In this document: piece by piece, positions 14,812-21,542 of the stretch
Layout: every line of letters begins with the position of its first letter
How positions within the stretch are numbered: position 1 is the stretch's first letter
NCBI GenBank assembly: GCA_964643675.1
Contig: CAZXTO010000001.1
Span: 1-37,439 of the forward strand
Source of the DNA: an uncultured Planctomycetales bacterium
GTDB lineage: Bacteria; Planctomycetota; UBA1135
Reading direction: 5' to 3'
Length of the DNA stretch: 37,439 bases
Made by a program: the position numbers and the translations under genes
Notes under the pieces: model-generated
Told to the model about the DNA's origin: nothing
Seen by the model: the letters and a program-made list of their open reading frames with translations, nothing else
Database searches by the model: none

Positions 14812-17800
14812 TCAGCGGACCTGGACGATGGCGGGGCCAGTCGCCAGCATGGCAAGCACCTCGTCAAGGACCAGTTCGCCGCGGCCATTCCATCCGCGCA
14901 AGCGATACTCCCCTTCCGGGAAGGAACGGATCAGCCAAGAGTCCTCCTCCTCGGCCCGAACAGCCGACAGGTCCATCGGCGTCCCAACCGAGAATCCGGC
15001 TTCGACCTGGAGACGCTCGATTGCTAATCCCTCAGGAAGCCGCAGCTCAACCAGATCAACGCGTCGACGAAGAATGGCGCTCACGGATGTCTCGAAAGTC
15101 GTGACCAGGGGCCAGTAGCCGAACTTCTCGATGCGCAGGCCCCCTTCACCTGGCGGCCCGTGAATGCGTCCAACTCCGCCGCGATCCGTAATGGCTCGAA
15201 GCCCAGCATCTTGGTTCCAAAGCGTGACCCCTGCCACGGGGATGCCATCCAGACCCTCGCAATGAACCTCGCACTGGAGAGTCTGCATCCCAAGCATGAG
15301 ATCCCCGGCCATCGGGAGTTCGGCGACCGAATAGACTTCGACACCACCACCAGGGAGTTGAAAGAGCGCCTCCAATGGCAAGGCGGGCGAGCTGTCTATT
15401 CTGAGGACTCCCTCTGCATCAGCTGAAGCACCACCAGGGAACGATGCGCCATCACGAAGTCGGAAGGTCACAAAGGCGGATGGAAGGGCCTGCCCCGCCT
15501 GATCCACGAGCCGGACTTCGCGTTCGACTGTGTTGAACGCATCAACCTCATATTGCTCCTGACCGGACTCCACATCGGCTCCATAGATCCGCACCAGAGA
15601 ATCGGACAAACAGAATGCACCGACATAATCCTGGTCACTGGGAGGGCTAAGGGAAAATGTGTGATCGCCTTTGACGGGAGATGTCTCCAGCCACCCTTTG
15701 ACCGCATGGAAACCACGCAATGGATGTTGGGGTGCACCCATTAGCTTGCCCCAGACTGGAGGCATGCCCGATAGTTCAAAGTCAACATTCCGTACCCACT
15801 CTCCAGAGTGGACACCGACCTCTTGGATTTGATTCGGCTGGAACAGCAGATGTGAGCTGCTTGGTTTAAGAAACAACTTGTATGCTCCAGGAGAAATCCC
15901 AGAGAATTGGAATCTGCCTAGCTCGTCTGAAGTAACTTCACCGCCGTACCAGCCGTCGGAACGGTGTAGTTCGATCTGGATCCCTGACCAAGGAGTTGCA
16001 TTGTGATCTCGAATGGCGCCCTCTATCCCACCACCTTCGAGTTGGAGCAATCCAAGATCCAGCCCACCGCTCGGGACATCAAAAGGGCCGATGCAATACC
16101 CTCGAGGCGAGCCGTCAGCAACAACAAGTGCGTGACGCCCTACTGATATAGGGATCTCGGCACCACCTCCATGAATGGCAATCGGGTCGCTGCGATATCC
16201 CCGAGAATTCAATAGCCGCACCTCCCAAGGACCGTCTTCCGGCTCAGGAAGCTCGAAGCGCAATGTGTCAGTTAACACTTGAGGCAGGGTGAGTAAGCCA
16301 TTGTCGCCCTCACCTATCACAACATCCCAATCCCAACGCATCCCATCCTTGCTCACCAAAGAAACCGTGCACGGCCCAGTCGGAATCCAAGGGCTCCTAG
16401 CCCGCTGATCAATCCATGTCGCATATGAATTATCCCAGTTTGACCTTGGGTGAAACTCAACCTCGAACGACTCAAGGCCTACTGGGAGATTCTGATGCAG
16501 GTTAAGCCTGGAGAATGAACCCATTGGCGGCAGAACAACATCAACTACCTCTCCTGCGGTGGGGACCAGGACTGTCATCTCCGGCCCTCTCCAATAGTCA
16601 GACCACCATTGCAATAGACAGACCTCTCCAGGAACAAAGGCATCATCGGTGCTAACAAGTCCATTCTGATCAGATGTGTACATCCCGGGTACCCAGTCAT
16701 AACCATCCCTGGAGGCCATCACATCGATGCCGTGGAGCGGTACTCCACTGGGAGTCACAAACCTCATCTGAAAAGCGATGGCCGGATTCAACACAAAGTT
16801 AAGTTCGACATTATCACCAGTTCGCGGCCGCTGGATGAGGTGGTGGTCCACGGCGAAGCCATCTTTGAAGGCCACAGCCAAGATCGCAGGATGCTCAGCT
16901 GAAACATCCGTACAAACATAGGTGCCATCCTCCTTCACCTTCGTACTCCCCGCATCCTCCGTGCGCCCATTACCCATGTATAGGAAACCGACAAATCCAC
17001 CCGCAACAGGACTCTGTTCCCCATCAACTACCTTGCCGTACACAGAGAATCCTCGCGTCGCCATTAGGACAATGTGATCTCCATCACTTGCCTCATACTC
17101 CACCTCGAAATTTAACCCGTCAATATGCTCGCAAGCGACGGTCATTGGCATAGAGAGCGGCTGGCCAAGAAGGACTTCACCTGCAGCGTTCGTTTTCTCC
17201 TCCCAGAAGAAGAACTTCCGCTGTAATTTCTCCCTCCAGGAATACCCTAAGTATTTGGTATCCGCGACTGAATAGAAAACCCGAACGGCGATGCCCTCGA
17301 CCGGGCTCCTGTTTGCATCCTCCACTCGGACCCGCAACCCATCGGCACTGCTCAGCCTCCAAGTGACTTCCTCGCCCTGGAAGCTCAAATAACGAGCCGA
17401 CACTTCGTGCTTTTGGATGTCTGGCCATACTAAATACTCCATCCCACTGAAGACATCAGGACACTCAGCAACCCCATCGATAACAGGCACTGTCGAGTGC
17501 TCCTCAAGCCTGAGAAGGTCGTCCCCATTAAAGCCGATGTCTCCGTCCACGAATTCCTGAATCCTGGGCGAAACCTGTAGCAAGTGGAGCACTCCATCAA
17601 GTTCCCTCTCGTCTCCACTACCCATAAATCGCACAACCTGACGGGGACTGGGCTGCCCCCCGGTCCAAGACCTGGCTTCCTCATTTCTTGCGGGAGTTCC
17701 TGGAGCTTCACCGCCAGGGGTCACCTGTAGCGTTTGGTTTCTTCCGTCATGATCGGCGGAGATTGAGGACTGGCTAGAATCTCCGGTAATTGGGCGGGAA

Positions 17801-17907
17801 GCATCCGAGATAGCTGGATCGTACTCCTCGCTCCTATCGAGGAGCACGAGGGCAGTGATGACCCCGAAGCCAACAAATGCCAAGTACCAATGCTTCGAGA
17901 TTCTCAC
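14812..17907 (-). CDS. Large N-terminally membrane-anchored surface protein composed of multiple carboxypeptidase-regulatory-like/prealbumin-fold beta-sandwich repeats
   Basis: 1031-aa ORF with a GTG start. It has a single N-terminal TM/signal-anchor (WYLAFVGFGVITALVLL). At least five segments show the pattern 'V.V.D..g.Pv.G..V.l.....g....tD..G.f.f..l.pG.Y.l', for example VRVEDANRSPVEGIAVRVFY, GKVVDGEQSPVAGGFVGFLY...DGTYVCTDV, GAIRDHNATPWSGIQIELH...SDELGRFQFSGISPGAYKLFL, VRLVDQAGQALPSAFVTFRL...ADAEGVLRI and GLDGIPVAGVTLWNQDAGLRAITDRGGVGRI. Confidence 0.8.
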   Translation of the reverse strand: MRISKHWYLAFVGFGVITALVLLDRSEEYDPAISDASRPITGDSSQSSISADHDGRNQTLQVTPGGEAPGTPARNEEARSWTGGQPSPRQVVRFMGSGDERELDGVLHLLQVSPRIQEFVDGDIGFNGDDLLRLEEHSTVPVIDGVAECPDVFSGMEYLVWPDIQKHEVSARYLSFQGEEVTWRLSSADGLRVRVEDANRSPVEGIAVRVFYSVADTKYLGYSWREKLQRKFFFWEEKTNAAGEVLLGQPLSMPMTVACEHIDGLNFEVEYEASDGDHIVLMATRGFSVYGKVVDGEQSPVAGGFVGFLYMGNGRTEDAGSTKVKEDGTYVCTDVSAEHPAILAVAFKDGFAVDHHLIQRPRTGDNVELNFVLNPAIAFQMRFVTPSGVPLHGIDVMASRDGYDWVPGMYTSDQNGLVSTDDAFVPGEVCLLQWWSDYWRGPEMTVLVPTAGEVVDVVLPPMGSFSRLNLHQNLPVGLESFEVEFHPRSNWDNSYATWIDQRARSPWIPTGPCTVSLVSKDGMRWDWDVVIGEGDNGLLTLPQVLTDTLRFELPEPEDGPWEVRLLNSRGYRSDPIAIHGGGAEIPISVGRHALVVADGSPRGYCIGPFDVPSGGLDLGLLQLEGGGIEGAIRDHNATPWSGIQIELHRSDGWYGGEVTSDELGRFQFSGISPGAYKLFLKPSSSHLLFQPNQIQEVGVHSGEWVRNVDFELSGMPPVWGKLMGAPQHPLRGFHAVKGWLETSPVKGDHTFSLSPPSDQDYVGAFCLSDSLVRIYGADVESGQEQYEVDAFNTVEREVRLVDQAGQALPSAFVTFRLRDGASFPGGASADAEGVLRIDSSPALPLEALFQLPGGGVEVYSVAELPMAGDLMLGMQTLQCEVHCEGLDGIPVAGVTLWNQDAGLRAITDRGGVGRIHGPPGEGGLRIEKFGYWPLVTTFETSVSAILRRRVDLVELRLPEGLAIERLQVEAGFSVGTPMDLSAVRAEEEDSWLIRSFPEGEYRLRGWNGRGELVLDEVLAMLATGPAIVQVR

Positions 17908-18131
17908 CGTCTACCAGGGCCTTGCCGACTCCTCTCCTTCACTCCTCCGATGTGGCCCGTAACGGGGTCCGTTCCACCACCAGGATCTCCATTGGAGGGA
18001 GACGCAGCTCGGCCCTCGTGCTGCCCACCACCTGCACGCAATGGTTGGGAGCCCAGTAGGGCCAACCAACAAAGACAAAGGAGGGCGGCCTTAGCTACCT
18101 GGCTCCAATGGGACCGGTTGTTTCGCGTCAT
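17904..18131 (-). CDS. Small hypothetical exported/membrane protein (75 aa), possibly translationally coupled to the large surface protein
   Basis: ATG at 18129-18131 is preceded by GAGG 6 nt upstream. A hydrophobic segment (AKAALLCLCWLALLGS) is followed by a Gly/Pro-rich tail. The stop overlaps the GTG start of the downstream gene (GTGA). There are no recognisable motifs, so coding status is uncertain. Confidence 0.35.
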   Translation of the reverse strand: MTRNNRSHWSQVAKAALLCLCWLALLGSQPLRAGGGQHEGRAASPSNGDPGGGTDPVTGHIGGVKERSRQGPGRR

Positions 18132-18177
18132 CGCAGCCTCAGGTTCCTGTCACGCGGCAGCTCCCCAAGCGACTCCA

Positions 18178-18792
18178 TCATGCTGCCGAACCGAACTTCC
18201 ACCCGTAGGCAAAAAAGTCTACTCTCGCTAGGGTGCACGTCGGGTCAGCTTCCGCGGCAAGCCTAGACAATTCGACTGCGCGAGGAAGGTCCCCTCTCTT
18301 TTCCTCAAGTCCAGCCATATTTCGGAGTGCCCGAGATCTAATGGAGTGTGAGAGCCCCGGCCGGCCAATGAGTGCGGCTAATGCAGGTTCAGCAATTTGG
18401 AGGGATCCTACTCTCATTCCATTCGCCGCAAGAGTGATGAGCGCAAGAGGATCAAAAGCCCGAAGAGAGGCGGCAACCGTCGCCAAGGCCAAGGGGTCGT
18501 TCCAGTTGTCGGTTTCGGCCATCTGCTCTAGGCGGATCTCCATCTGGTGGCGGTCCTCGAGGTAGGAGACAAGGTTGCTGCCGAGGCTGTGGTATTCACG
18601 CCATGCGCTTCGGAGGCTGGCGAACAACCGTTGAGGGTCCTTGGGGATCAGCCTGGAGTCTGGAGCGTACTTGTTCCCGTCCTGGATCCGGAGTCCAGCG
18701 AGCACCGACGCCTTCAAGGTGAGCAGCCCGAGGTGCCGAGCGACCTCATCGGCGTAGGCGCCCGCAGCACGGAGGAGCAAGGCCTGGGTCAT
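18178..18792 (-). CDS. Hypothetical all-helical soluble protein with a TPR-like C-terminus; candidate partner (anti-sigma-like or adaptor) of the upstream sigma factor
   Basis: I take the ATG at 18790-18792 (MTQALLLRAAGAY...) as the start, which overlaps the sigma gene stop as ATGA. There is no TM segment. The C-terminus (RALRNMAGLEEKRGDLPRAVELSRLAAEADPT) is TPR-like. Confidence 0.6.
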   Translation of the reverse strand: MTQALLLRAAGAYADEVARHLGLLTLKASVLAGLRIQDGNKYAPDSRLIPKDPQRLFASLRSAWREYHSLGSNLVSYLEDRHQMEIRLEQMAETDNWNDPLALATVAASLRAFDPLALITLAANGMRVGSLQIAEPALAALIGRPGLSHSIRSRALRNMAGLEEKRGDLPRAVELSRLAAEADPTCTLARVDFFAYGWKFGSAA

Positions 18793-19424
18793 TCCTGCTC
18801 GTGGTCGGCCTGCTCTTGGACTGCCGACTCGGCCAGGAATTCGGGAGCTCGCCAACCCTTAGGCAGGTGAAGCTCATCGATTCCGCGGGTGAGTACCTGC
18901 CAGATCCTGAGCAGGCTGGCGCGGATCTCAGCCGGAAGGATGCCAGTGGCTCGAGCGACCTGTGCTGGGTTCCTCTTCTCGATCAAGTAGAGAAACAAGA
19001 TCGCGCGATCGGCGGTCGGCAGCTGGTTGAAGCGCCCCTGGAGTTCCGCGCTCGGCTCTCCGGAGGCGCCGTTCACGACGCCGAGCTGATCCTCAGGGTC
19101 AGCGAGGTCGCGCAAGATGCGCGATTCGATCCAGAGTCCGAACGCCTCATGAGTGTCATGCAATGCGTCTCGCTTGGCGGCCTTGGCGAACAAACGGGCA
19201 AGGAGGAATTCTTCCGGAAGAACGAGGAAGTGCCGAACGACAGCGACGCGGATCCCACGTTTGATCCAGGGCTCAACGCGCTCGAACAACTTGCCGAGGT
19301 GCGAGTAACGCTCCGTCTCGGGCAGGTTCTGGAAGGCTTGAAAGGCTCGCTTCGTGAGCAGCCACTCCCTGACCAAGGTGGGAGTGTTCGCCGGAGCAAT
19401 CCGGATGTGGTGGCTTCGATCCAT
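18789..19424 (-). CDS. Divergent ECF-type sigma-70 family RNA polymerase sigma factor
   Basis: I take the ATG at 19422-19424 (MDRSHHIRIAP...) as the start. The region 4 HTH is clear (LPTADRAILFLYLIEKRNPAQVARATGILPAEIRASLLRIWQVL). The region-2-like segment is weak (EEFLLARLFAKAAKRD...FGLWIESRILRDLAD). The longer ORF-track start at 19646 adds 74 non-descript residues. Confidence 0.7.
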   Translation of the reverse strand: MDRSHHIRIAPANTPTLVREWLLTKRAFQAFQNLPETERYSHLGKLFERVEPWIKRGIRVAVVRHFLVLPEEFLLARLFAKAAKRDALHDTHEAFGLWIESRILRDLADPEDQLGVVNGASGEPSAELQGRFNQLPTADRAILFLYLIEKRNPAQVARATGILPAEIRASLLRIWQVLTRGIDELHLPKGWRAPEFLAESAVQEQADHEQE

Positions 19425-19855
19425 GGGGGGCAGAGATCTGGCAATAAGAGGTCGCCCGAAGGGAGCGGGCTCGAACCTCGAAGAGAGGCTTCCTTCACTC
19501 TCCAATCTCGGAGAGCCTGCGGGGCCAAAAATTTGGCCCAAAATGCCCCATTCCCAGGTGGAAGACCTGCGCCGAGGATCTCGGCCTTCGCCGAGGATTC
19601 TCGAAACCTCGCCTTGAGGAGGGCGTAAGTCTGCCTGATAACCCATGCAGCGTCTGCCTGTTGCCGAACGGGCGGATGCGGGAAGGCGTCCCGGGGAGGG
19701 GCGCCGACCTCCCTTGCTAATCGGTAGGCCGACTGTGCGACTTTTTGGGGGGAGCGCAGTCGGCCGCTTTTCTACCCTCCGAGGGAGACCCGGCGTTGAG
19801 CCCCGGTAGGAACTTGGTTTCCTGCCGCGGGGCTCCCCGGGATCGTGGATGAGCG

Positions 19856-20112
19856 TGTGGATAACTAGTGGAAAGTGCTCCCGCGGGCCGAATTCGGAGG
19901 GCCTTTCTCAGGAGTCTCAGGGATTCCCCACAATTGTGGAGAACACCGATCCCTGGCCTCGAGAGTCGGCACAAATCCTGAAGAAAAAGGGACTCCCGGA
20001 GACCTGCGATTTCCACCCGATTGTGGAGAAGCTGGGGAAAGCGCTCCGAAGTGGTCTTTCAGACTTCGTATGAGTGGCCCTTTGAGGCAATTGTGGATAA
20101 GTCTGTGGAAGA
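19856..20112 (+). promoter_or_regulatory. Cluster of same-orientation DnaA-box-like 9-mers (candidate oriC-type or DnaA-titrating/regulatory element)
   Basis: TGTGGATAA occurs as a perfect consensus at 19856-19864 and 20092-20100. TGTGGAGAA (1 mismatch) occurs at 19935-19943 and 20022-20030. TGTGGAAGA (2 mismatches) occurs at 20104-20112. Weaker sites are CGTGGATGA (19844-19852) and TAGTGGAAA (19866-19874). Three boxes share the extended motif ATTGTGGA[G/T]AA. Confidence 0.5.
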
Positions 20113-20907
20113 CTCGCCGGCCGGGGCCCCGCCCGAGGGGCCGAAACCCAGCACGAGCACCGTCCTGGGGCAGGCCTCGGCGCAGTCCCCGCAGCGGCTG
20201 CAATCCGGGTCGGTCACGGCCGCGGCGCCGGCCTGGACGTGTTCCTCCATGACCGGGATGCCGAGCGGGCAGGCGCGGCTGCAGCGGCGACAGCCGGGGC
20301 GGCCGGCGGCCTCCCCCACCAGGATCCGGAAGCGGGACCAGCGGCCGAGCAGGGCGTGGACCGCCCCCACCGGGCACAAGGAGGCGCAGAAGGCCCTCCG
20401 GAAGGCCCATTCCAGGGCCAGGACCCCCGCCACCAGCAGCCACTCCAGGCCGGCGCCGGCCCCGGCCCCCCAAACGAGCCAGTTGATCGGCGACACCGAC
20501 TGGAACAGCGGGAAGCCGGCGGCGGCGCTGCCGGCCACGCAGGCGAGCGCCAAGCCGTATTTCCAGCTTCGTGGCAAGCTGCGCTCAGGAAGCCACTTGC
20601 GGAAGCGTTCGCGGAGGGGGTCTTGGAGTTCCAGGACCAGGCCCAGGGGGCACAGCCAGCCGCAGAAGACCCGGCCCAGGATCAGCGCCGGCAGGGCCAC
20701 GAGCAGGCCGCCGAGCAGCAGCTCCGGCTCGAGCCGGCGGCTGGCGGCGGCGGTCTCGAGCACCGCCAGGGGGTCGGCCAGGGTCAATCCCCACCAGTCG
20801 ACCGAGGGGAAGGCCCCCTGCACCCCCGGCAGCCAGCCGCGGCCAATGGCGATCAGGGCGGCGAAGAAGGCCGCGGCGCTGAGGCGGCGCGCGAGGCGGA
20901 GGCTCAT
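20059..20907 (-). CDS. napH: NapH, membrane-bound iron-sulfur quinol dehydrogenase subunit
   Basis: I take the ATG at 20905-20907 (MSLRLARRLSAAAFFAALIAIG) as the start, overlapping the napG stop as ATGA. It has four hydrophobic segments. The two CX3CP motifs are CGWLCP and CASLCP. The C-terminal ferredoxin cysteines are CRRCSRACP and CSRCGDCAEACP. The longer ORF-track version runs through napG in another frame. Confidence 0.9.
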   Translation of the reverse strand: MSLRLARRLSAAAFFAALIAIGRGWLPGVQGAFPSVDWWGLTLADPLAVLETAAASRRLEPELLLGGLLVALPALILGRVFCGWLCPLGLVLELQDPLRERFRKWLPERSLPRSWKYGLALACVAGSAAAGFPLFQSVSPINWLVWGAGAGAGLEWLLVAGVLALEWAFRRAFCASLCPVGAVHALLGRWSRFRILVGEAAGRPGCRRCSRACPLGIPVMEEHVQAGAAAVTDPDCSRCGDCAEACPRTVLVLGFGPSGGAPAGESSTDLSTIASKGHSYEV

Positions 20908-21542
20908 CGCGGCTCCGTCGGCTCCGCGGCCAGGTCCCGCCGCTCCCCGGCCGGCCGGGCCGCCTCGGGGATCATCCGGATCGCGCTGGGTTCGGTCGGG
21001 CAGGCCCAGTCGCACAGGCCGCAGCCGATGCAGGCCTCGGCCACGATCTCGACCCGGCCGAGGGGGTCGAAGCGGATCGCCTCGTCGGGCAGCGGGCAGG
21101 CGCGCCAGCAGACGCGGCAGATCTGGCGGTTCCAGGCCAGGCACTGCTCGAGGTCGAGCTCGGCCACGCCCATCCGGATCGCGCGGGTGCCCGCGACCGG
21201 GGCCAGCGCGCCGCTCGGGCAGGCGTCGATGCAGAGCAGCGAGTCCTCGCCCTTGCAGAGGTGGCAGGGCACGGCCCGGGCGTCCAGCCAGGGGGTTCCA
21301 GCGCTGGCGCCGGCGCCGATCCCGGCCAGGGCCAGGGTGTCGAAGGGGCAGGCCTGTACGCAACGGCCGCAGCGGATGCAGGCGGCCAGGAAGTCGGCCT
21401 CGGAACCGGAGACGCCCGGCGGCCTCAACCAGGCCGCCGGGCGCGCTTGGGTCCCGCGGAGCAGTCCGCCGCCGATCGCGGCGCCGACCAGCCAGCCGGC
21501 CGAGGCCAGCCACTGGCGGCGGGTGCTCCGCTCACCCTCCAT
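20904..21542 (-). CDS. napG: NapG, Tat-exported poly-ferredoxin subunit
   Basis: 212 aa with a Tat-like STRRQWL signal. It has four Fe-S cysteine groups (CIRCGRCVQACP, CHLCKG..CIDACP, CRVCWRACP, CIGCGLCDWACP). Confidence 0.9.
   Translation of the reverse strand: MEGERSTRRQWLASAGWLVGAAIGGGLLRGTQARPAAWLRPPGVSGSEADFLAACIRCGRCVQACPFDTLALAGIGAGASAGTPWLDARAVPCHLCKGEDSLLCIDACPSGALAPVAGTRAIRMGVAELDLEQCLAWNRQICRVCWRACPLPDEAIRFDPLGRVEIVAEACIGCGLCDWACPTEPSAIRMIPEAARPAGERRDLAAEPTEPR

Follow-up and report, generated by a model that had tools for sequence, protein, structure and literature searches.

An extra-origin cluster of candidate DnaA boxes behind a structured small RNA in an uncultured planctomycete lineage

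We investigated a 37,439-nucleotide stretch of DNA from an uncultured Planctomycetales bacterium (hereafter the window), in which a sequence-only reading had picked out a dense cluster of DnaA-box 9-mers. The window is the entire contig C1 of an assembly of 483 contigs (G000; 3.6 Mb, 71% G+C, 81% complete). The cluster lies behind a gene for a structured small RNA (sRNA); the gene for an extracytoplasmic function (ECF)-like sigma factor diverges from the sRNA on the left, and the 3' end of napH runs into the cluster from the right. The comparison covered the same genus (G001, G002, G003 and G004; five genus members in all, with G000), 40 relatives in a DNA search for conserved stretches of the window, and 49 family genomes from 22 genera in a survey for the sRNA (covariance model R1) and the sigma gene. 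All compared genomes are metagenome-assembled genomes (MAGs) of uncultured organisms, and related genomes are non-independent samples.

The box cluster and the small RNA ahead of it

The sRNA and the cluster comprise the following features.

19603..19627, plus strand: sRNA promoter GAAAC-N16-CGTA, ECF-type, the sole match in the window
19623..19773, plus strand: structured sRNA starting near 19634 and about 140 nt long, three hairpins and then an intrinsic terminator
19727-19765, plus strand: stem of the intrinsic sRNA terminator, with tail GCTTTTCT
19844..19875, plus strand: box unit 1, weak CGTGGATGA (19844), strong TGTGGATAA (19856-19864) and weak AGTGGAAAG (19867), at an 11-12 bp period
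19902..19912, plus strand: spacer block CCTTTCTCAGG between units 1 and 2, kept as CCyTTyTCAG in G000, G002, G004 and G003
19924..19943, plus strand: box unit 2, strong TGTGGAGAA (19935-19943) and an overlapping inverted weak site (19932 to 19924)
20009..20041, plus strand: box unit 3, inverted weak ATTTCCACC (20017 to 20009), strong TGTGGAGAA (20022-20030) and weak TGGGGAAAG (20033)
20056..20071, plus strand: spacer block TCTTTCAGACTTCGTA, overlapping the napH stop codon (20059-20061)
20092..20112, plus strand: box unit 4, strong TGTGGATAA (20092-20100) and one-mismatch TGTGGAAGA (20104-20112), with a 12-bp period, both within the C-terminal tail of the open reading frame (ORF) of napH

Four exact TGTGGA[T/G]AA boxes, all on the plus strand, stand 79, 87 and 70 bp apart (start to start, 19856/19935/20022/20092), against 0.17 expected in the window, and none of 100 shuffles reached four. 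When sites between 19780 and 20160 were counted by their mismatches to TGTGGANAA, we obtained four exact sites, six with at most one mismatch and 11 with at most two, nine of these 11 on the plus strand. Composition-matched shuffles of the same region gave 0.004, 0.2 and 2.1, and in 1000 of them no observed count was reached. Two of the sites complement TTATCCACA without a mismatch. Weaker boxes start 11-12 bp downstream of strong ones (at 19867, 20033 and 20104), and an extended motif, ATTGTGGAKAA, occurs at 19933, 20020 and 20090 with one further copy in the entire assembly. Genome-wide, TGTGGAKAA occurs 18 times in 3.6 Mb, four of them in the cluster, and a 300-bp sliding box score reached 10 here and 4 at the runner-up, making this the strongest cluster of the assembly. 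The G+C content is 68% in the window, 61% in the intergenic stretch (19425-20058, 634 bp) and 55% in the cluster. A palindrome, CCACAATTGTGG (19928-19939), is formed in unit 2; we rejected it as a meaningful element, its left, inverted arm not being conserved in relatives.

These counts agree with what the sequence-only reading had described, namely two perfect and two variant boxes in one orientation within about 260 bp (19856-20112), several two-mismatch sites, strong boxes roughly 70-90 bp apart, an extended motif shared by three of them, and the last two boxes (20092-20112) within the last codons of napH. The genome-wide word count that it had proposed is the one given above. Its non-coding stretch of about 630 bp with lowered G+C held as to length and composition, but the stretch is not wholly filler, as it holds the sRNA gene.

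The region 19602-19795 is 84-91% identical within the genus, and its core (19714-19771) was found in other genera as well. The fold z-score was -3.5 on the plus strand and -0.2 on the minus strand, and some G·U pairs are possible only on the plus strand. An alignment of eight sRNA sequences gave 36 pairs with 93.8% of cells paired, compared to at most 51% when the partners were slid; compensatory changes were seen in 10 pairs, a count reached by one of 500 shuffles. Model R1 found single-copy matches in 10 of the 49 family genomes (five of the 22 genera). Rfam returned no family for the sRNA or the cluster, either at the gathering threshold over the window or with E up to 10 over 19000-20300, and no tRNA or tmRNA was found; the sRNA is previously uncatalogued. 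Its promoter, of the sigma-W/ECF type, recurs with the same spacing in six of seven relatives, while G010 has GATAC. The terminator tails are short or interrupted (GCTTTTCT, GCATTCTTT). We also noted that, in the genus, the sigma gene start is preceded by CCCCCC (19425-19433), with no Shine-Dalgarno sequence, and that the invariant terminator loop (19744-19756) contains GGGGGGAG. It is conceivable from the sequences that this loop pairs with the C-run, which is absent in G010 and G021.

The sequence-only reading had missed that the boxes are conserved in synteny across five genera and tied to the terminator of this ECF-promoter sRNA. In alignments of the genus, the strong boxes of units 1 and 2 are invariant in all five members, against diverged spacers, and units 3 and 4 can be made out in four genomes. 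G002 shows exactly the same 79/87/70-bp spacing. Unit 3 retains ATTTCCA-N-ATTGTGGAsAAGCTGkkGAAA in G000, G002 and G004, and unit 4 retains ATTGTGGAkAAsyCTGTGGArrAC in these three and in G003. The TCTTTCAGACTTCGTA block is kept in G000, G002 and G004 and partly in G003, even in genomes without napH at that place. The inverted weak sites of the cluster are not conserved in relatives.

Beyond the genus, all 10 genomes with the sRNA (five genera) carry two to five boxes within 330 bp past the terminator, almost all in the orientation of the RNA. In G021, G064 and G009 the T-run of the terminator is overlapped by an inverted box, TTTTCCACA, and in G012 it runs into a forward box. No box was found between the sigma gene and the sRNA in the sRNA-bearing genomes, and no box cluster upstream of the sigma gene in those sRNA-less family genomes that were checked. 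The pattern TGTGGANAA-N55-100-TGTGGANAA gave 30 matches in the 49 family genomes versus one for the reversed control, and within the genus every match falls at the sRNA-box locus.

The replication origin and the identity of the box

As the sequence-only reading had noted, no dnaA or dnaN lies nearby; in G000, dnaA (a 497-aa ORF) is on contig C12 and dnaN on contig C7. The gap between dnaA and dnaN holds an array of nGTGGAnAA boxes whose spacing (76/93/48 bp) is kept in G001, G002 and G010, and equivalent boxes, including tandem degenerate ones at a 12-bp period, are found in the gap of G000 and G021. In G000 the gap is split over the two contigs (C12:21600-21826 and C7:1-146), and its tandem degenerate boxes read TGTGGGAAA-acc-GGTGGAGAA-cag-GGGGGAAAG. 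A conserved TATACT stands immediately before dnaN. Over its final ~180 bp, C12 departs from the G002 gap, which suggests an insertion or an assembly join.

The GC-skew analysis that had been proposed was carried out in relatives. On a 184-kb contig of G010 (C3), the skew turns at 40 kb, going from about -0.05 to +0.05, and the cumulative G-C minimum falls at 40,692, approximately 100 bp outside the dnaA-dnaN box array (40.8-41.2 kb); to either side of the sRNA-box locus (134.4 kb) the skew is positive (+0.03 and +0.06). On contig C33 of G021 the skew is weak. Its sign change, together with a minus-strand gene bias up to 180 kb, fits an origin at dnaA (186-188 kb), and no inflection occurs at the sRNA-box locus (83.6 kb). 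Contig C1 of G012 likewise has no inflection at the locus, and skew in the genus is too noisy to place an origin (G001, contigs C15 and C2). In the window, the skew is about 0 to the left and +0.046 to the right of the cluster and is not V-shaped. The locus and dnaA share a contig in G010 and G021, 93 kb and 103 kb apart, and lie on different contigs in the genus. In both G010 and G021 the locus has the same orientation relative to the approaching replication fork, which meets the boxes first. By box density on these contigs, the dnaA-dnaN gap ranks first and the sRNA locus second (G021) or joint second (G010).

No 30-mer of the intergenic region exceeds 57% AT, and the one that reaches this value, at 19527, lies outside the cluster. 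The cluster holds no conserved AT-rich unwinding element, and a GAAGAAAAAG tract (19978-19987) is not conserved in the genus alignment. Because the skew minimum of relatives lies in the dnaA-dnaN gap and a conserved AT-rich element is lacking here, the cluster locus is not oriC. The sequence-only reading, which had leaned against a classical origin and had seen no unwinding element beyond that short tract, is supported on both points.

Since nGTGGAnAA is arrayed in the gap beside the skew minimum, the motif is the origin box of the lineage. TGTGGAKAA is very probably its DnaA box, judging by the match to the consensus, the recurrence at the inferred origin, the phylogenetic footprint and a normal DnaA domain IV, in which the equivalents of R399, D433 and H434 are kept (alignment to E. 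coli 1J1V). In high-GC bacteria the third position is relaxed (TTnTCCACA), with TTGTCCACA in Streptomyces and Mycobacterium.

Flanking genes and other box-bearing sites

Two protein-coding genes flank the sRNA and the boxes.

18789..19424, minus strand: ECF-like sigma gene, divergent from the sRNA, true start ATG 19424 (MDRSHHIRIAP)
20059..20931, minus strand: napH, stop 20059-20061, its 3' end running into the cluster

The sigma ORF had been listed as 18789-19646, and homologues place its start at ATG 19424. It gave weak matches to sigma region 4 only; as a query over public genomes it found no match, and an alignment-based scan led to five MAG loci. The operon runs from the sigma gene through a 225-aa partner (18178-18855) and a mini-ORF to a 1031-aa surface protein with CarboxypepD_reg repeats (14812-17907). 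By tblastn it is syntenic in G001-G004, G010 and G021, including family members of 48-50% G+C, and the sigma gene itself is present in 37 of the 49 family genomes. Upstream of the operon (19425-19600) no promoter was recognised, and no ECF-like promoter was found on the sigma-gene strand. A search for sigma-70-like promoters on either strand of 19300-20300 also found none.

The sigma operon has a low G+C content at third codon positions in G000 (0.57-0.69 within 14812-19424, compared to 0.85-0.95 in G001), and G002 and G004 have about 64% G+C at the locus; a single conserved operon thus varies sharply in composition within the genus. We considered whether the low-GC block at 14.8-20.1 kb is a foreign island, and rejected this on the grounds that the operon, the sRNA and the boxes are syntenic across genera.

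To the right of the cluster lie napH, napG and napA, all on the minus strand. The NapH profile covers residues 13-260 of 290 and ends 30 residues ahead of the stop, so that box unit 4 falls in a non-conserved tail. The nap operon adjoins the cluster only in G000 and G002, a sulfatase homologue taking that place in G001, G003 and G004; nap was therefore inserted (or lost) at the edge of a pre-existing cluster. Across genomes the downstream neighbour is napH, the sulfatase, a napA-like gene, a 348-aa gene or a Zn-ribbon membrane gene. This neighbour is convergent in the genus, G009 and G010, and in the genus the cluster is flanked by two 3' ends. We rejected a DnaA-regulated promoter of the downstream gene as a conserved feature, given that the neighbour varies and both flanks in the genus are 3' ends; the promoter option of the sequence-only reading is weakened to that extent. 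The cluster was also rejected as the promoter of the Zn-ribbon gene: in G000 that gene is on contig C122, with no boxes in the ~1.2 kb scanned upstream. The Zn-ribbon membrane protein is about 330 aa long, with a coiled-coil-like middle and a C-terminal double Zn-ribbon (CPxC...CxxCG); its gene comes after the cluster in two genera, and it is encoded at L097:1951-2949 (G021), L098:2095-3090 (G012) and G000:C122:5679-6581.

Elsewhere in G000, the box word occurs in a repeat that resembles a miniature inverted-repeat transposable element (MITE) or insertion sequence (IS). We found at least nine copies, many within 70 bp of contig ends (C94:2503-2593, C94:1-42, C213:1-68, C356:1-47 and 3715, C460:1-79 and 2680, C280:4812 and C84:3230), and more are probably unassembled. 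On C94, two inverted copies flank a hairpin and form a 100-bp mini-element. Two other sites were inspected as relatives of the cluster and found to be unrelated to the locus. At C121:3321-3353 (L043), three tandem boxes with an exact 12-bp period lie on the minus strand (TGTGGACAA, TGTGGAAAG and TGTGGAAAC), at the start of a MaoC-dehydratase gene and about 70 bp from an AT-rich near-palindrome, TTTTGAAAACAACATAATATATATTATCAGA; this could be a DnaA-regulated divergent promoter. On C129, one ATTGTGGATAAG lies in the gap beside ruvX and fdhD.

Possible roles of the cluster

We read the locus as a conserved extra-origin DnaA-box cluster whose most likely role, with a probability of about one half, is that of a DnaA sink or regulator coupled to sRNA transcription, similar to datA or to the DnaA-box clusters (DBCs) of B. 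subtilis. We infer that DnaA binds the cluster and, with more reserve, that it is titrated or inactivated there. A strong box would recruit DnaA, and the bound DnaA would help further DnaA onto a weaker box about one helical turn away. By binding a sizeable amount of DnaA, the cluster would then buffer or down-modulate initiator availability. Because the cluster abuts a rather weak terminator, sRNA read-through and DnaA occupancy would probably affect each other.

In E. coli, datA, a locus of DnaA-ATP hydrolysis and titration, follows the glyVXY terminator, and transcription reading through from there modulates it (Kasho 2024, PMC10950094). The planctomycete locus resembles it as a high-affinity box cluster off oriC, directly downstream of the terminator of a stable RNA, from which read-through could enter. 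It differs in box number, orientation and spacing, and in that the upstream RNA is an ECF-promoter sRNA rather than a tRNA operon. Furthermore, datA needs a site for the integration host factor (IHF) between essential boxes, whereas no IHF consensus is present here. B. subtilis DBCs are likewise intergenic multi-box clusters outside oriC (Ishikawa 2007, PMC2533591; Okumura 2012, PMC3245932), and joint deletion of the oriC-proximal ones leads to early initiation (Okumura 2012, PMC3245932). Origin-proximal clusters have been argued to be most important in bacteria without Hda (Okumura et al., PMC3245932). In G010 and G021 the locus also lies near the origin (93-103 kb away), and no Hda homologue was found in the five genomes searched. 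A negative effect on initiation via DnaA binding, as in B. subtilis, is what we propose here. By contrast, B. subtilis DBCs lie mostly in promoter regions and regulate their neighbours, while in the present genus the cluster has a 3' end on either side and is linked to the terminator of an sRNA; moreover, only one such cluster per genome is evident here.

The likeness to E. coli DARS1 and DARS2, which are DnaA-reactivating sequences, is that of a short non-coding box cluster off oriC. The DARS core consists of three compact boxes, with box I opposite to boxes II and III. The inverted-then-co-oriented boxes of G021, G064 and G009 loosely recall this core; the strong boxes at the present locus are all co-oriented, 70-87 bp apart, and form no compact three-box core. 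Of the datA-like and DARS-like roles that the sequence-only reading had offered, the former, or a DBC-like one, would fit best. An extra-origin DnaA-box cluster in S. coelicolor reportedly restrains replication (Smulczyk-Krawczyszyn 2006, reference 40 of PMC3245932). It shares a high-GC genome, TTGTCCACA-type boxes and the form of a separate cluster with our locus, and differs in belonging to another phylum and in having no reported linkage to an sRNA.

Several observations weigh against a DnaA sink. We found no site for the IHF consensus WATCAANNNNTTR with at most one mismatch in 19774-20130, which leaves the datA mechanism proper unsupported; Fis or IHF sites were also not recognised in the cluster, and HU/IHF-family genes are present in the genome. 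Outside the genus, each cluster has one to three exact boxes plus one-mismatch sites, fewer than a titration sink would lead one to expect and closer to the picture of a local regulatory site. The strict linkage to the sRNA suggests a function tied to that RNA, not global DnaA buffering. Lastly, a co-directional Zn-ribbon gene follows the boxes in G021, G064 and G012, where a promoter role is possible.

The few boxes outside the genus and the strict sRNA linkage sustain the main, though less likely, alternative, in which the boxes act as a local transcriptional device: DnaA would be a roadblock or modulator of sRNA termination and read-through, or would control a minus-strand promoter. In the minus-strand variant, an unrecognised promoter would produce a long leader, antisense through the sRNA into the sigma operon. 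Both variants would tie the ECF module to the replication state. In every one of the 10 genomes the boxes accompany the 3' end of the sRNA, with an inverted box on the T-run in G021, G064 and G009 and a forward box at the T-run in G012. The short or interrupted terminator tails, the one to three exact boxes outside the genus and the failure to recognise a sigma operon promoter in 19425-19600 point the same way. However, neither strand of 19300-20300 has a sigma-70-like promoter, no ECF-like promoter is present in the gene sense, and four to five strong units over 260 bp exceed the needs of a roadblock or an operator. It is improbable that some protein other than DnaA, for instance a nucleoid protein or an origin-binding response regulator, binds the 9-mers, in which case their resemblance to DnaA boxes would be shared or accidental. 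Winged-helix regulators, too, typically have direct repeats in tandem with a period of 11-12 bp, and the local DnaA is changed from the E. coli domain IV (1J1V alignment) at P423G, T435S and H439Y, positions that we take to be base-contacting in E. coli DnaA. Nevertheless, the local DnaA retains the equivalents of R399, D433 and H434, two of the sites complement TTATCCACA perfectly, the variable position fits the relaxed third position known from high-GC bacteria, and an array of the same motif occupies the dnaA-dnaN gap at the skew minimum.

We regard it as very unlikely that the cluster is oriC, or a second or relocated origin, in the genus. It is the strongest box cluster of the assembly, all genes to its left are on the minus strand, the window skew goes from about 0 to +0.046 across it, and gene orientation in G001 diverges one gene from it. 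On the other hand, G010 has a V-shaped skew with its minimum at the dnaA-dnaN gap, 93 kb off; gene-strand bias and the skew sign change in G021 fit dnaA; and G012 and G001 have no inflection at the locus. In addition, the AT-richest 30-mer reaches just 57% AT and lies off the cluster, GAAGAAAAAG is not conserved, and the dnaA-dnaN gap keeps its own conserved box array in the genus. The proposal that the boxes are decayed ends of the MITE/IS-like repeat (GGTGTCAGGCTCATTCGTAAGATnnTGTGGAkAAC) is in effect refuted by the way the locus is conserved. This repeat does hold seven of the assembly's 11 perfect TGTGGATAA, often at contig ends, and the element ends therefore contain a DnaA-box-like word. 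However, the remainder of the repeat, GGTGTCAGGCTCATTCGTAAGAT, is not at the locus, and across five genera, some of whose genomes have 48-50% G+C, the cluster keeps both its synteny and its position.

The datA- or DBC-like sink could be taken one step further, with the sRNA and the boxes as one functional unit that couples stress signalling to replication initiation, although we consider this extension unlikely. Upon activation of the ECF-like sigma factor, for example by envelope stress, strong sRNA transcription running past the weak terminator would strip DnaA from the sink; alternatively, DnaA occupancy would set the amount of terminated sRNA. If true, Planctomycetota would have arrived independently at the logic of glyVXY and datA.

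For the control of replication initiation in Planctomycetota, the cluster would represent a first candidate for a regulatory site of the datA/DBC type. At approximately 350 bp it is a ready probe for biochemistry with recombinant DnaA. For annotation, the lesson is that oriC need not be where a draft genome has its strongest cluster of DnaA boxes. For the biology of the lineage, the fixed place of the boxes behind an sRNA with an ECF-type promoter suggests that the replication initiator may be connected with a stress sigma factor.

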